Origin: Escherichia phage ELT1
Sequence record: MZ892903.1
Strand: one strand, 5' to 3'
DNA: 64,000 bases
Below, piece by piece: positions 28,401 through 32,781 of the stretch. A program made the translations under genes and the position numbers. The notes below the pieces were generated by a model, which saw only the letters and a list, made by a program, of their open reading frames with translations, had not been told where the DNA came from and did no database searches. Within the stretch, counting starts at the first letter, position 1. The number at the start of each line of letters is the position of its first letter.

Positions 28401-28763
28401 TTAAAAGAATTTAAACTTTTTCTTTGACCTTTTATTGAATGCATCTTGTAGTTGCATTGTAATACATTTTTCTACATGAGGAGCTAACTCAGCTTTTCTT
28501 TCTTGGTCAAGAACAGCAAAGTCCATTACAACCTTTCCATCAACCCAATCTAATTTTGTCACATACACAATGTGTGTAGAACCATCTTCTAGTTTAATGA
28601 CAATCTCCTGGATAACATTTTCCATGGCAGATTTAATTATCTTAAGAGACTCATTAAAAAGACGTTCTTTTCTTTCTTCTTCCCCCTCCGAAGAGGGGGA
28701 TTCATCGATAATTTCTAGATCTAAGTCTAAATCATCTTTATTCATTAAATTCTTCCATATCAC
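28401..28763 (-). CDS. 40: gp40-like head vertex assembly protein, 120 aa
   Basis: length and position between uvsX and 41. Confidence 0.6.
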   Translation of the reverse strand: MIWKNLMNKDDLDLDLEIIDESPSSEGEEERKERLFNESLKIIKSAMENVIQEIVIKLEDGSTHIVYVTKLDWVDGKVVMDFAVLDQERKAELAPHVEKCITMQLQDAFNKRSKKKFKFF

Positions 28764-29385
28764 TTAACTGCTCGAGGTCAGTTTCTAAATCAGCAGCTGA
28801 TTTACTTTTACTTTCTGGAGATTTAAATTTTTCAACCTTTGAGTTAATCAATTCATCAACTTCAGCTTCAACAATTTCATTACTATCAATAGCACCTAAC
28901 TGATAAGCACGTTTAATAGCATCTCGGAATGGTTGATGCTTAAATAAAGGACCCCAGAATGTAGTGCAGTTGGTATCTTTTGCACGCCAAGATTTTTCTT
29001 CGCGAATCATCTCGCCGGTTTCTTCATCAAGAAATTCACGAGCATACCAGCCATTTTTTGGTTTTACTACAAATCCTAATTCTAGAGCCATATCTAACAA
29101 TCCAGAATAAGGATCGATACCACCGTCAAATTTAACATCAATAAAGAATTTACTTTTTTCTTTAACGGTACGAGATTTTTCTACATTTAGAACAAATTGA
29201 TACCCCTGAAGATCAGAACCATCTTTAATCTGACGCTTACCGATAATGAATACAGTATCAGCCGAATACATTACGCCTGTATTGTGTGTAACGATACCAT
29301 TTTCTAAAACATAATGCTCTACGTCAGCAACAGACAAATCATAGACTTCTTTTTTACCAACAGATTTAACAGATTTAATTTTCAT
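28738..29385 (-). CDS. uvsX: UvsX C-terminal piece: 35-aa C-intein fused to ~180-aa UvsX C-extein
   Basis: MKIKSVKSVGKKEVYDLSVADVEHYVLENGIVTHN then TGVMYSADTVFIIGKRQIKDG... (UvsX C-terminal half); own ATG with AAGG RBS. Confidence 0.85.
   Translation of the reverse strand: MKIKSVKSVGKKEVYDLSVADVEHYVLENGIVTHNTGVMYSADTVFIIGKRQIKDGSDLQGYQFVLNVEKSRTVKEKSKFFIDVKFDGGIDPYSGLLDMALELGFVVKPKNGWYAREFLDEETGEMIREEKSWRAKDTNCTTFWGPLFKHQPFRDAIKRAYQLGAIDSNEIVEAEVDELINSKVEKFKSPESKSKSAADLETDLEQLSDMEEFNE
29281..29385 (-). mobile_element. split intein C-fragment, 35 aa
   Basis: intein blocks F/G VYDLSV...H.Y..NGIVTHN followed by +1 Thr. Confidence 0.8.
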
Positions 29386-29417
29386 ACTTTACCTTGTGTT
29401 TCGTAGTAGCTAGTTTC

Positions 29418-29442
29418 AATATACATATTTCATGAAAGCATA
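29418..29442 (-). promoter_or_regulatory. middle-promoter-like element upstream of UvsX C-piece
   Basis: minus strand ATGCTTTCA (MotA-box-like), 12 nt, then TATATT. Confidence 0.35.
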
Positions 29443-29527
29443 ATCTTGATTGTCGCGTTCATTCCAAATTCTTTTACCATATCTTCGAATGTAGTGCGAA
29501 CCCGTAAAGAACTCGCATTGGAATGCC

Positions 29528-30250
29528 TTAACCACGTGCATCTACTGCATAAGCCCATCCTTTTGTGTTAGCTTTAATTTTGTTGATAATTGTGTTAGGA
29601 TTAATTCCCAGCGCTCTTGCAGCAGGTCTGACGCCCCGGTATTCAATACCGTTTATGATAACGCCTTTTTGTCTAGGATGAGAATGCTTTAATCTTTTCT
29701 TTGCTTTTTCTGATATTTCATTAATTGTTTCTTTGGTGTGTTTCTTACCATAGAACCCATTGTTTTCTCCTGTAATACCTTCTGATATGTGCTTACGGTG
29801 TTCATCAGAAGATTTCACGCCTTTTGTGACGCCAACATACACACCAGATTTAACAAGCGGATGGTTTCTTTCAAGACGAATACATTTACCTGTTATATGA
29901 TGCTTGTATGATGCAAAATCAGCATTAGCATATGAATTATGTCCACAAGCATAATCCAAATTAAAATAATCTGGATTTGTTTTAACGTTTACTTGTTTCT
30001 GATAGAAATTTTCGCGCTCTAGCAGTTTAGCATGTTTAATATCATCATATTGCTCCAGTATTTCAACAGTAACATTATTGATAAAATCATGATATCCGGG
30101 ATATCTCGATGAGCCATAGTACTCGCGACCACGGGCGTCAATAATCTTACCGTCTACATAAGAAGCATTTGTCTTGCTTCCTATGTAGTAATACGGCGGA
30201 GTGCCGTTTTTAATTCTATCGTTGAACACAATTTTATAGACAAAATTCAT
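29528..30250 (-). CDS. free-standing GIY-YIG homing endonuclease (Seg-like), 240 aa
   Basis: N-terminal FVYKIVF...YYYIGSK, NUMOD-like NGFYGKKHT, C-terminal helix-turn-helix-like tail; sits between the two uvsX pieces. Confidence 0.7.
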   Translation of the reverse strand: MNFVYKIVFNDRIKNGTPPYYYIGSKTNASYVDGKIIDARGREYYGSSRYPGYHDFINNVTVEILEQYDDIKHAKLLERENFYQKQVNVKTNPDYFNLDYACGHNSYANADFASYKHHITGKCIRLERNHPLVKSGVYVGVTKGVKSSDEHRKHISEGITGENNGFYGKKHTKETINEISEKAKKRLKHSHPRQKGVIINGIEYRGVRPAARALGINPNTIINKIKANTKGWAYAVDARG

Positions 30251-30253
30251 ATG

Positions 30254-30286
30254 GGTACCTCAAAAATATACATTAGTCCGGTACCC
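30254..30286 (-). promoter_or_regulatory. hairpin sequestering the RBS of the endonuclease gene
   Basis: inverted repeat GGGTACC (30254-30260) / GGTACCC (30280-30286); 3' arm covers GAGG just upstream of ATG 30248-30250. Confidence 0.45.
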
Positions 30287-30293
30287 ATATTTA

Positions 30294-31223
30294 TTACCTT
30301 ACAACACAATCCATTCCAGCTACTAAATCTTTAGCTTCAACCCAAGTTGGAATGTCTTTAACCATTACCAGGAACTTGTGGGTATCTGAAGTAGTTACTT
30401 TATAACCGTCTTCGAATTCAATTTCGAAACATTCAGGAGTACCTTCAGCCAGAGTTTCTGGGTCCCAAACATAAGTTACTTCATTATCACCGACCATGGT
30501 TTTAACACGTTCACCTGGACGAATATCTTCAACTGCTTTAGTAGAACCATCGGACATCTGGATTTTAGTACCAGCAATAACACAACCACCTGTCATCACG
30601 GTTTTACTAAACAGTTCAATTGTTTCAATTGTATGGTTAACCGCAACACACGGAATGTTTTTAATACTAAAATAAGGAGTAACAATACGGAATAATGACT
30701 TCAGTGATTTAGCACGAGTCATATCTGCCACAGATTTTTCATTCAAGGCATCTTCCGTTTCTTTCTTAGAAGCCATATTACCAATTGAGTCAATGAATAC
30801 AATAACTTTTTCACCACGCTCAATAGCTTCAAGCTGATTCACCATATCAATTTTCAGCTGTTCAACTGACTGAATTGGTGTATGAATTACTCGTTCCGGG
30901 TCAACTCCCATGGATCGCAAATAAGCTGGAGTAATACCAAATTCGCTATCATAGAATAGACAAACCGCGTCAGGATATTTGTTCAAATACGCCGCAACCA
31001 TAGTCAAAGACATATTTGATTTAAAGTGTTTAGAAGGACCTGCAAAAATGGTTAAACCAGACTGCATACCACCATCAATCGCACCAGAAATAGCGATATT
31101 AAGCATTGGGATTTTTGTACGGATTACATCCTTTTCATTAAAGAATTTAGATGTAGTCAGTTCAGCAGTCATTTTAGAAGTGGAAGCTTTAATTAAACGG
31201 GATTTTAAATCTGCAATAGACAT
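30294..31223 (-). CDS. uvsX: UvsX N-terminal piece: ~213-aa N-extein fused to 96-aa N-intein
   Basis: MSIADLKSRLIKAS..., Walker A GPSKHFKS, ...KTVMTGG then CVIAGTKIQ...TTSDTHKF...MDCVVR-stop. Confidence 0.85.
   Translation of the reverse strand: MSIADLKSRLIKASTSKMTAELTTSKFFNEKDVIRTKIPMLNIAISGAIDGGMQSGLTIFAGPSKHFKSNMSLTMVAAYLNKYPDAVCLFYDSEFGITPAYLRSMGVDPERVIHTPIQSVEQLKIDMVNQLEAIERGEKVIVFIDSIGNMASKKETEDALNEKSVADMTRAKSLKSLFRIVTPYFSIKNIPCVAVNHTIETIELFSKTVMTGGCVIAGTKIQMSDGSTKAVEDIRPGERVKTMVGDNEVTYVWDPETLAEGTPECFEIEFEDGYKVTTSDTHKFLVMVKDIPTWVEAKDLVAGMDCVVR
30297..30584 (-). mobile_element. split intein N-fragment, 96 aa
   Basis: intein block A CVIAGTKI and block B TTSDTHKFLV; ends at in-frame TAA. 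Confidence 0.8.
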
Positions 31224-31300
31224 TCATTTTTTCCATAGGCATCATTATATTTTCCTCACTGGTTAAAGATAGAGTAATTATAACACAATAAATTTAGGCA

Positions 31301-32143
31301 TTAATCAACTGCTATTGGATGAATAGCATTAAACTTATGAAATGCTTCTGATTTTTCTTTACGCGAAACACACATGCGAAGAACCTTTAGTGGTTCATCT
31401 TCTTCACCCAACGATTTTCGTTTTTCAATATTTGAAGTTTTCCAACGAGCTTGCTCTGGAAACTCTCTATTGATTTGCTCAAGCGCTCTATTATGTTTAG
31501 AATTACTACGAATTGAACTACATCCACCGGGAGCGTGTGATTTTCCAGATACAACTAGATATTTGAACAAGGCCAAATGCGGATAACCTTGATTAATTAA
31601 ATTGAGAAATGCATACATATCTTCGCATAAATCAATTTTTCCATACCCAATTTGTTCTGTCGTAAGTTTTCCGAGGTCATACCATGTATTCGTGAATCCA
31701 TATGAGTTTTCACGATAATTACCCCAAGATGAAGTAATTTTAAAAATTGGTAGACGAGCATGGCCATGATAATACCCACAATCCATGGCATCTTCAACGT
31801 ATTGAATCAATTCATAGAACTGTTCACGAGTTAATTGATTAATTTTATCTACACGCCGTTTATCGTCTCTCTTTCGTATTGAACTCATACGAATAGTAGT
31901 ATCATCATCAATCATCCAGATTCGTTGACCTGCATACATATCAGTAATTGCTTTACGAGTACCGGCAATTCCATTAACATCATCAGGAATAGTTACAATT
32001 TTAGCTCTAGACCCATAAGCATCATAATAAGCTTTTTCTTCGTGTTCACGCACTACAATATGGGGTTCATAATCAGTCGGAAACATATTAAGGGCAGAAA
32101 CTGCCCCTACACGCTGATAACTTGGAATTACGAATTGAATCAT
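31301..32143 (-). CDS. putative glycosyltransferase (GT-A-like, DxD), 280 aa, in the position of T4 b-gt
   Basis: WMIDDD motif; unlike the recalled 351-aa T4 beta-glucosyltransferase. Confidence 0.55.
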   Translation of the reverse strand: MIQFVIPSYQRVGAVSALNMFPTDYEPHIVVREHEEKAYYDAYGSRAKIVTIPDDVNGIAGTRKAITDMYAGQRIWMIDDDTTIRMSSIRKRDDKRRVDKINQLTREQFYELIQYVEDAMDCGYYHGHARLPIFKITSSWGNYRENSYGFTNTWYDLGKLTTEQIGYGKIDLCEDMYAFLNLINQGYPHLALFKYLVVSGKSHAPGGCSSIRSNSKHNRALEQINREFPEQARWKTSNIEKRKSLGEEDEPLKVLRMCVSRKEKSEAFHKFNAIHPIAVD

Positions 32144-32781
32144 TTAAGTGCCTTACATTTGTCAAAATGGTATCTTGTCATATTTGGCCCACGTCCTTTT
32201 AGTCCGCAATGCGGACATATTTTTTCTATCAAATTATGAGGTTTTCCTTTACGATTTTTAGACATCGTTTCTTTAATTATTTTAGCTTTTTCTACGCCAA
32301 AAATTTCTTCATAAGTTTTACCAGAATTTTCCTTGGCTCGATTTATAATTCCATATGCCTGCTCATTTTTACCATACATTGGATTACCTTCGCCTTTCAT
32401 TCTTTTAGAATGATCAGGACGCTTGATTCCACGAAAGGCATTTCCGCACTTATATCTTTCTTCTGGAGATAGTTTTTTACCGTACATTCCATTTAATTTG
32501 CCTGGAAAACTTCCTCCCCATGCTTCATTCTTTAAATTATATGAATCCGGACAATTAGCAGCATCTAAACAAGTTAAAATAATTTCTTCAACCTGTCTAA
32601 ACATTGGTCCTTCATATAATATTTCTTTATTAAAGGATTTTATTCCATATTTCTTTTTAGCATGTTGCCAAACTACACCCGAACCATCATAATTCGGGTT
32701 GTGACCATCATGACTTCCTATATACCACTTTTTAGTTTTAGGATGTTTATACTTATAAACATGTGGCACATTTACTTCCAT
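32140..32781 (-). CDS. GIY-YIG homing endonuclease (Seg-like), 213 aa
   Basis: HVYKYKHPKTKKWYIGS, NUMOD-like NGMYGKK and NPMYGKN, C-terminal CPHCG zinc finger. Confidence 0.65.
   Translation of the reverse strand: MEVNVPHVYKYKHPKTKKWYIGSHDGHNPNYDGSGVVWQHAKKKYGIKSFNKEILYEGPMFRQVEEIILTCLDAANCPDSYNLKNEAWGGSFPGKLNGMYGKKLSPEERYKCGNAFRGIKRPDHSKRMKGEGNPMYGKNEQAYGIINRAKENSGKTYEEIFGVEKAKIIKETMSKNRKGKPHNLIEKICPHCGLKGRGPNMTRYHFDKCKALK

Follow-up and report, generated by a model that had tools for sequence, protein, structure and literature searches.

A fractured uvsX gene in Escherichia phage ELT1, with a split intein predicted to restore the recombinase by protein trans-splicing

In Escherichia phage ELT1 the gene for the UvsX recombinase is divided between two open reading frames (ORFs), with a homing endonuclease gene lying between them. 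The DNA analyzed, referred to as the window, was a stretch of 64,000 nucleotides (nt) of this phage (MZ892903.1), in which three ORFs on the minus strand occupy three different reading frames. The N-piece ORF (positions 30294 to 31223) encodes 309 amino acids, comprising UvsX residues 1 to 213 and a 96-residue N-terminal intein half (IntN). It is followed by the endonuclease ORF (29528-30250; 240 amino acids) and by the C-piece ORF (28738-29385; 215 amino acids), which encodes a 35-residue C-terminal intein half (IntC) and then UvsX residues 214 to 393, the first of which is Thr+1. Tandem stop codons, TAA TAA, close the N-piece at 30291-30296 on the minus strand (30294-30296, then in frame 30291-30293) and are identical in all Tequatrovirus copies. 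The gap between the N-piece and the endonuclease ATG is 43 nt, and 142 nt separate the endonuclease stop from the C-piece ATG. The initial annotation, made from the sequence alone, had described the same coordinates and frames and the same 96- and 35-residue extra segments, and the ORF listing agrees with it.

The three proteins are identical to Escherichia phage ELT1 entries, and the exact proteins are also found in many metagenomic contigs. Gene 42, a second GIY-YIG gene, and a gene for beta-glucosyl-hydroxymethylcytosine (HMC) alpha-glucosyltransferase lie upstream, and genes 40 and 41 lie downstream; this neighborhood is that of uvsX in a T6-like Tequatrovirus. When the region was compared by megablast with 50,697 phage records, 706 records matched, and the whole insert was present in 8 of these, representing six phages (pSe_SNUABM_01, HY03, BYEP01, SP21535, SYGD1, and RPN226). 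The element is found in only ~1% of Tequatrovirus records. The rest of the 706 records have an uninterrupted uvsX, which upholds the earlier description of the locus as a departure from the contiguous gene. A sequencing or assembly artefact is excluded, because the six other independently sequenced Tequatrovirus genomes keep all three ORFs intact. The N-piece TAA at 30294-30296 is the same in the seven independent genomes.

Relative to phage T6, the insert is 1,304 nt long (29281-30584) and is located exactly between G213 and T214 of T6 UvsX. The N-extein (30585-31223, minus strand; residues 1 to 213) contains the Walker A motif GPSKHFKS, matches the Pfam RecA model (1.4e-8) and the PHROG UvsX-like recombinase family (5.9e-79), and continues through DNA-binding loop L2 to end in ...NHTIETIELFSKTVMTGG. 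The C-extein (28738-29280, minus strand; residues 214 to 393 and the stop codon) starts with the +1 Thr, TGVMYSAD..., and matches Pfam T4_UVSX_C (1.9e-39). On alignment with the contiguous 393-residue T6 UvsX, the two parts abut (...KTVMTGG213/T214GVMYSAD..., the slash here and below marking the junction) with zero residues lost or duplicated. At the DNA level, the joined flanks are identical to T6 uvsX across ±29 nt. The extein boundaries and Thr+1 were thus placed correctly from the start, the first 213 residues of the first ORF and the last 180 of the third joining precisely.

Alignment of UvsX with Escherichia coli RecA (HMMER) over NHT-IETIEMFSKTVMTGG/TGVMYSA placed G213 on RecA G212, and the insertion site corresponds to RecA G212/N213. 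DNA-binding loop L2 of RecA comprises residues 195 to 209. By this alignment the intein site lies directly after loop L2. His197, within NHT, is the equivalent of T4 H195, mutation of which impairs the binding of single-stranded DNA (ssDNA) (PMC3016280). The insertion site is conserved and functionally critical, as is typical for inteins.

The segments appended to the two exteins carry the sequence blocks of an intein. IntN (30297-30584, minus strand) reads CVIAGTKIQ...TSDTHKF...GMDCVVR, with a C1 nucleophile and a block B S-x-x-H, and IntC (29281-29385, minus strand; MKIKSVKSVGKKEVYDLSVADVEHYVLENGIVTHN) has its own ATG, a block F Asp, and a block G His-Asn. Blocks A, B, F, and G are present in the 96- and 35-residue halves, as first proposed. 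The splicing residues are C214 of the N-piece (C1), S279-D-T-H282, which aligns with TKDH of Npu DnaE (HMMER), the VYD of IntC, and H34-N35 at the ...IVTHN/T junction. The class 1 catalytic set is complete, with Cys1, the block B SxxH, the block F Asp, the block G His-Asn, and Thr+1. IntN has a net charge of −9, and the first 12 residues of IntC form a basic strand (+5); an acidic IntN and a basic IntC are the polarity of DnaE-type split inteins (PMC2677866).

When IntN and IntC were concatenated, solved inteins were matched with phmmer, including Npu DnaE (4kl5; 1e-5), gp41-1 (3e-4), and Pho RadA (1e-3). The C-terminal intein model TIGR01443 (intein_Cterm) scored 29.9 bits (cut-off, 15.6), the C-piece also matched the IntC end of the split DnaE model PRK07373, and the intein-containing RecA model PRK09519 was matched weakly. 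The structure model was that of a contiguous metagenomic relative (P0011) with 53% and 63% identity to IntN and IntC of the window, respectively. The core of this model had predicted local distance difference test (pLDDT) values of 85 to 94, and its top PDB matches were all inteins or BIL domains. The best was the gp41-1 split intein (E value of 2.6e-9; template modeling [TM] score of 0.88; root mean square deviation of 2.0 Å), and the fold also matched the Mtu RecA splicing domain (Foldseek E value of ~1e-6). The model suggests that the uvsX intein family has the HINT fold, with the gp41-1 split intein as its nearest neighbor. C1, the block B His, the His-Asn pair, and Thr or Ser at +1 are invariant in all relatives examined, as are M1, H34, and N35 of IntC among the relatives compared; the catalytic residues are kept in ~20 phages and dozens of metagenomic relatives.

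A tblastn search with the 96-residue IntN segment found 27 records, from ~19 distinct phages, in which the host gene was always uvsX and the order always N-piece, endonuclease gene, C-piece. Besides the six Tequatrovirus genomes, ~12 more members of the Straboviridae share this layout. Among the carriers are phages of Klebsiella, Salmonella, Enterobacter (Karamvirus), Proteus (Bragavirus), Pseudomonas (Jiangsuvirus), Yersinia (Tegunavirus), Shewanella, and Vibrio. A database search with IntN returned 423 representatives at an E value of ≤1e-3. Some full-length UvsX proteins have contiguous mini-inteins at the same ...GG/C site (P0065, P0070, P0076, and P0089), and the break point of the window lies within the variable linker of these mini-inteins. 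A single allelic intein family is thus seen in several states. Besides the contiguous form, there are split forms with a GIY-YIG gene, as in the window, Pm5461, PspYZU05, and others; split forms with HNH genes, as in L003, L008, and L006 (two such genes in L006); and split forms in which the endonuclease gene has decayed. This series of states is the prediction of the gene-breaking model of Dassa et al. (2009).

Selection was evaluated by counting changes among the seven Tequatrovirus copies and by calculating the ratio of nonsynonymous to synonymous substitution rates (dN/dS; Nei-Gojobori method) against close and distant carriers. IntN had 13 synonymous changes and 1 nonsynonymous change, IntC had 2 and 0, the UvsX exteins had 90 and 10, and the endonuclease gene had 63 and 36. 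The dN/dS values were 0.00 to 0.11 for the intein, 0.02 to 0.19 for the exteins, and 0.07 to 0.25 for the endonuclease, for which dN was much higher. Purifying selection on the intein halves is as strong as that on the exteins. Five synonymous changes and a conservative D280N form a run across block B in RPN226 and leave SxxH and the flanking residues unchanged.

The ORF between the two UvsX pieces (29528-30250, minus strand) is a free-standing, Seg-type GIY-YIG homing endonuclease gene with a NUMOD3 domain and a C-terminal, helix-turn-helix-like NUMOD1 domain. NUMOD3 scored 37.1 bits (Pfam cut-off, 20.4), and the PHROG homing endonuclease family was matched at 1e-25. The protein is 45.7% identical to T4 SegG over residues 1 to 103 and 69% identical to the product of the gene at the same place in Proteus phage Pm5461. 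In alignments with SegG and the relatives, the VYK(12)YYIGS, ERENF, and YFN motifs are conserved, and the DNA-binding half is not related to its counterpart in SegG. In Yersinia phage TG1 (L016:2501-3455) the endonuclease gene has decayed into overlapping ORFs of 133 (GIY-YIG) and 201 (DNA-binding) amino acids, and in Vibrio phage VmeM-32 (L020:2784-3185) only the 133-residue catalytic domain is left; the intein halves of both phages are intact despite this decay. Pm5461 (L014:3858-5237) has, in addition, a "Hef-like" homing endonuclease gene right after the uvsX C-piece and ahead of gene 40, and its locus thus holds two endonuclease genes within 3 kb.

An RNA hairpin with an 11-bp stem and a 20-nt loop is predicted over the start of the endonuclease gene (30249-30290, minus strand, with 30290-30280 pairing with 30259-30249; minimum free energy, −17.7 kcal/mol). 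Its sequence is ATATGGGTACC(20 nt)GGTACCCATAT, and it sequesters the GG of the GAGG Shine-Dalgarno sequence (30258-30261) and the AT of the endonuclease ATG. The stems of RPN226, Lion_ER11, and UFV01 carry a compensatory change from G-C to A-U (a G>A and C>T pair). Equivalent hairpins were found in Lion_ER11, UFV01, Pm5461, PspYZU05, EniLVp02, and TG1; distant loci have a different hairpin in the same place. The z-score on a 76-nt segment is modest (−2.05), and the case for the hairpin is made by the perfect 11-bp stem, the position over the start codon, and the covariation rather than by the z-score. The initial annotation had described a free-standing GIY-YIG gene with its own ATG and a hairpin occluding the ribosome-binding site and start, and these structural claims all held.

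A late-promoter-like element, AATAAATA (30288-30295, minus strand), agrees with the T4-type late promoter, TATAAATA, at 7 of 8 positions and overlaps both the stop codons and the 5' strand of the hairpin stem; the TG1 and PspYZU05 hairpins contain an exact TATAAATA at the corresponding position. Dassa et al. described a 27- to 51-nt spacer that contains a hairpin and an element of the TATAAATA type in 15 of 16 fractured-gene loci, and reported TATAAATA in 10 fractured-gene hairpins (PMC2677866). They related this arrangement to the T4/Aeh1 paradigm, in which translation is blocked on read-through transcripts and takes place on late ones that start within the hairpin (PMC2677866). By analogy, the element in the window is presumably used as a late promoter. 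A scan of 28600-31400 for sigma-70 promoters and terminators yielded no relevant terminators, and promoter-like sites were fewer than in shuffled sequences; such a scan gives no information on T4 middle and late promoters.

The non-coding spacer between the endonuclease gene and the C-piece (29386-29527, minus strand) is 142, 108, or 38 nt long among the relatives. Its last ~35 nt are conserved and include an AAGG Shine-Dalgarno sequence at 29392-29395, 6 nt before the C-piece ATG. This sequence is kept in all copies, consistent with the earlier proposal that the C-piece has its own ATG and ribosome-binding site. Because of the variation in length, the remainder of the spacer is dispensable. 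Among the window and its close relatives (L010 to L013), the 142- and 108-nt spacers differ by a 34-nt indel flanked by CATTC direct repeats; the 38-nt spacer is that of RPN226. A MotA-box-like TGCTTTCA...TATATT within the 142-nt spacer, of doubtful significance, was considered as a private middle promoter for the C-piece and was set aside because its spacing departs from the consensus and RPN226 lacks the segment.

Comparisons among carriers point to mobility of the insert. The window and pSe_SNUABM_01 differ at 1 position over ~1,200 nt of insert versus ~44 over 2,000 nt of flanks (~2.2%; Poisson P of ~1e-10). HY03 is identical to the window in the insert and everything downstream, while as many as 42 of 200 positions differ in the 5' third of uvsX, a mosaic that places a recombination boundary 100 to 300 nt upstream of the insertion site. 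Relative to Lion_ER11, dS is lower in the intein (0.72) than in the exteins (1.3 to 1.8). The uniform insert, the divergent flanks, and the rarity of the element appear to be signatures of recent homing with co-conversion, for which the 240-residue protein would be expected to cleave the intein-less allele.

We consider it highly probable that uvsX in the window is a fractured gene in which a split class 1 mini-intein and a free-standing homing endonuclease gene form a homing unit, and that UvsX is made by trans-splicing. Protein trans-splicing is strongly, although indirectly, supported, as the selection on the intein, the conserved catalytic residues, the HINT-fold model of a contiguous relative, and the lack of an intron signal all point to it. 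Several observations weigh against this interpretation. The structure model is that of a contiguous relative, not of the two halves in the window. The N-terminal intein model TIGR01445 (intein_Nterm) scored 22.4 bits versus a cut-off of 24.5, and the matches to Pfam Hint, Vint, and Intein_splicing were all below the gathering cut-offs. In the Pfam search the 240-residue endonuclease had no match to the GIY-YIG model, and its TIGR01453 score (55.0; cut-off, 56.05) was ~1 bit short. The late-promoter-like AATAAATA agrees with TATAAATA at only seven of its eight positions. Thr+1 is an uncommon C-extein nucleophile, and splicing could therefore be slow. Furthermore, uvsX is not strictly essential in T4, and thus phage viability alone is no proof of splicing.

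The alternative that survives best, which we nevertheless regard as improbable, is that the two UvsX halves are joined non-covalently, through the intein halves or an interface of their own, and act as a two-chain recombinase without splicing, like Aeh1 NrdA. Functional fractured genes without inteins are documented, Aeh1 nrdA/mobE being the example (cited in PMC2677866; PMC3045599), and selection on the intein halves would be equally expected from a mere dimerization module. However, all catalytic splicing residues are retained across the ~20 phages and dozens of metagenomic relatives, and the run of changes across block B in RPN226 spares SxxH and its neighbors. Furthermore, a HINT domain of 131 residues remaining at the end of loop L2 would be likely to hinder both DNA binding and filament formation.

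It is considerably less probable that uvsX has been inactivated by a selfish insertion, so that its pieces are decaying pseudogenes and the phage depends on host RecA or other pathways. The gene is not absolutely essential in T4, and insertions of homing endonucleases can disrupt genes. However, the dN/dS of extein and intein halves is 0.00 to 0.19 with dS up to >1, and the ORFs, starts, and ribosome-binding sites are all intact in ~20 phages of several genera; decay is seen in the endonuclease gene (TG1 and VmeM-32), not in the intein or the exteins. Low dN/dS, invariant residues, and decay of the endonuclease gene only are the pattern to be expected if UvsX function depends on intein catalysis. 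This pattern argues against a pseudogene and largely against purely non-covalent assembly.

Removal at the RNA level by a group I or group II intron with an endonuclease ORF, or a single contiguous intein broken by sequencing errors, has a negligible probability: although GIY-YIG ORFs in group I introns are classic in T4 and the relative L008 carries a group I intron in uvsX, an Rfam search of 28600-31400 that included group I and II introns gave no match even at an E value of ≤1 (versus 102 bits for the L008 intron), and the intron explanation is therefore rejected; the border residues are in frame with the exteins and are those of intein blocks; and seven independent genomes share the three frames with their tandem stops, spacers, hairpin, and separate ribosome-binding sites.

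In the proposed trans-splicing mechanism, a Seg-type GIY-YIG gene would have invaded a class 1 mini-intein, situated at G213/T214, at the canonical endonuclease-insertion loop, and the recombinase is now encoded as two polypeptides, UvsX(1-213)-IntN(96 amino acids) and IntC(35 amino acids)-UvsX(214-393). Each piece would be translated from its own start on the uvsX-40-41 message, after which the acidic IntN would pair with the basic leading strand of IntC to form the HINT fold. Within this fold, C1, the block B His, the block F Asp, the terminal His-Asn, and Thr+1 would carry out trans-splicing. The expected product is a seamless ~44-kDa UvsX (...KTVMTGG-TGVMYSAD...) with a predicted tryptic junction peptide, TVMTGGTGVMYSADTVFIIGK. 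On early and middle read-through transcripts the endonuclease would be silent, its Shine-Dalgarno sequence and ATG being hidden by the hairpin, and it would probably be expressed late, from a transcript starting inside the hairpin at the TATAAATA-like element. In a mixed infection, the endonuclease would cut intein-less uvsX at a predicted T6/T4 target, ...GTGATGACAGGTGGT/ACAGGCGTAATG..., and repair would copy the whole 1.3-kb intein and endonuclease unit into the cut allele.

A doubtful extension of this mechanism is that the split intein serves as a post-translational gate on the recombinase, with UvsX active only once both halves accumulate and splice. Splicing at the end of loop L2 could, on this proposal, respond to redox state, temperature, or ssDNA. 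If it is true, the onset of recombination-dependent replication and the UvsX-dependent homing of the element would be tied to late endonuclease expression.

All of the sequence-level features by which fractured genes are recognized (PMC2677866) were found in uvsX of the window. In the loci of Dassa et al., as here, the host N-part with an in-frame IntN, a hairpin spacer, an endonuclease gene, and an IntC with the C-part follow one another on one strand (PMC2677866). Their spacers of 27 to 51 nt compare with 43 nt in the window, and the halves are 88 to 105 and 33 to 54 residues long, a range that includes the 96/35 split, which had been described from the outset as typical of natural split inteins. 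The hosts of those fractured genes, from ocean metagenomes, are gp41, NrdA, NrdJ, IMPDH, DnaE, ligase, and terminase, and uvsX appears only as a neighbor of fractured gp41 (PMC2677866), whereas here it is the host gene. Those loci come from short metagenomic assemblies, in contrast to the family described here, which is found in cultured, complete coliphage genomes. The window also differs in having Thr as the +1 nucleophile, and its intein is ~25% identical to gp41-1. Endonuclease gene and IntC overlap in the Dassa loci, as they do in the relatives Lion_ER11, TG1, and L003, but are 142 nt apart in the window.

The split DnaE inteins of Ssp and Npu are, like that of the window, natural split class 1 inteins with the break in the same loop, an acidic IntN, and a basic leading strand in IntC, and Npu DnaE was the best sequence match among solved inteins. 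Unlike in the window, the genes for the DnaE halves are distant from each other and no endonuclease gene intervenes; DnaE also has Cys+1 and no penultimate His, and its host is bacterial. The Mtu RecA and Pho RadA inteins also reside in RecA-family recombinases but are contiguous, and that of Mtu RecA has a LAGLIDADG domain. The Pho RadA intein lies at the P-loop and the Mtu RecA intein at about residue 251, and the UvsX site is probably distinct from both. Aeh1 nrdA/mobE and gene 43 of Aeromonas phage 25, with its GIY-YIG gene, resemble the window in that a gene of essential function in a T4-like phage is in two ORFs. There, too, the splitting endonuclease gene is regulated by a hairpin and a late promoter, but the pieces lack inteins and associate non-covalently.

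The PolB gene of the Pseudomonas jumbo phage MIJ3 is a further case from a cultured phage, with a putative split intein in the order IntN, HNH gene, IntC, and differs from the window in host gene, endonuclease family, intein family, and phage lineage (PMC6892783). T4 SegG shares 46% identity with the endonuclease of the window in the GIY-YIG domain; the Seg genes, however, are intergenic and not nested in inteins. T4 SegA is encoded beside uvsX and cleaves it, and uvsX is thus a known homing target (PMC2988022).

More complex arrangements were observed in metagenomic relatives. In a T4-like phage (L003:4346-7747; also L004 and L005; Logan SRR30164251 and others) UvsX is in three pieces, in the order N-piece with IntN(a), HNH gene, IntC(a)-TQEMYSKTVVSGG-IntN(b), HNH/NUMOD3 gene, IntC(b) with the C-piece. 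In these genes a second split intein, with an HNH gene of its own, lies 13 residues upstream, and loop L2 (TQEMYSKTVVSGG) forms a 13-residue micro-extein between an IntC and an IntN; intein (b) belongs to the family of the window. Such three-piece genes would therefore need two trans-splicing reactions, which would have to be orthogonal. Other intein combinations, with 8- and 11-residue micro-exteins and a mixture of contiguous and split forms, are found in P0058 and P0061. Further intein sites in UvsX (P0054, P0058, and P0061) are at the P-loop (.../TMLMLL..., in P0054), at ...ADMG/.../SMFPKTIMSGG, and at .../SKTVVSGG, which makes the NHT...GG (L2) region a hot spot. Because metagenomic relatives, including the three-piece genes, encode L2 as an 8- to 13-residue micro-extein between two inteins, the L2 region of UvsX may be a preferred landing pad for self-splicing elements.

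L008 has an ORF-less group I intron in uvsX (L008:1485-1727) at ...AINH/TYETQ... (Rfam RF00028; 101.9 bits; E value of 2e-27), ~15 codons upstream of the split-intein site, which in that contig holds an HNH endonuclease gene. In L006 (6001-6486; ENA ERZ15610583, a 35.8-kb contig; also in L007), the fractured uvsX with two HNH genes is followed directly by a small ORF that encodes this intein family again, now as a contiguous copy between tiny flanks, MSNIKGG/C...THN/SETI and a stop.

Elsewhere in the window, the second free-standing GIY-YIG-type homing endonuclease gene (32140-32781, minus strand; 213 amino acids; PHROG homing endonuclease, 2e-31) lies between gene 42 and the glucosyltransferase gene, overlapping each by a few nucleotides. 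It is present in the window, HY03, SYGD1, and RPN226 and absent from pSe_SNUABM_01, BYEP01, SP21535, and T6.

The layout belongs to a known class, the fractured gene (PMC2677866), and what is new is the host gene, uvsX, together with an experimentally tractable phage. No description of an intein-containing or interrupted uvsX was found in the literature searched; subscription journals and intein databases were outside its scope, and earlier notice is possible. The available genome papers of the carrier phages make no mention of a split uvsX or an intein, and the database names of the three proteins ("DNA repair protein," "recombinase," and "portal protein") never mention one; one GenBank note reads "conserved domain HintC." The label "portal protein" is that of the SYGD1 C-piece (L012:3482-4129; MW883059, SYGD1_19). 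Gene 42 (dCMP hydroxymethylase) is labeled "thymidylate synthase" in several RefSeq records. Because public annotations miss the intein, uvsX-based phylogenies and gene counts for the carrier phages are affected.

A mesophilic split intein with a Gly-1/Thr+1 junction, and orthogonal partners from the three-piece loci, are candidate tools for protein engineering. Laboratory-grown T-even-type coliphages (ELT1, HY03, pSe_SNUABM_01, and others) now provide a natural split intein together with its free-standing homing endonuclease. These carriers grow on E. coli K-12 or B-type hosts, as do near-isogenic intein-less phages such as T6. The fractured-gene model, which comes mostly from short metagenomic assemblies, thereby becomes directly testable with respect to mini-intein invasion, composite homing, and endonuclease decay. 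With states that range from contiguous to decayed, this one allelic intein family provides an unusually complete evolutionary series. Homing of the T4 type depends on the UvsX recombinase (PMC2988022), and the spread of the element would thus rely on the very protein that the element has broken.

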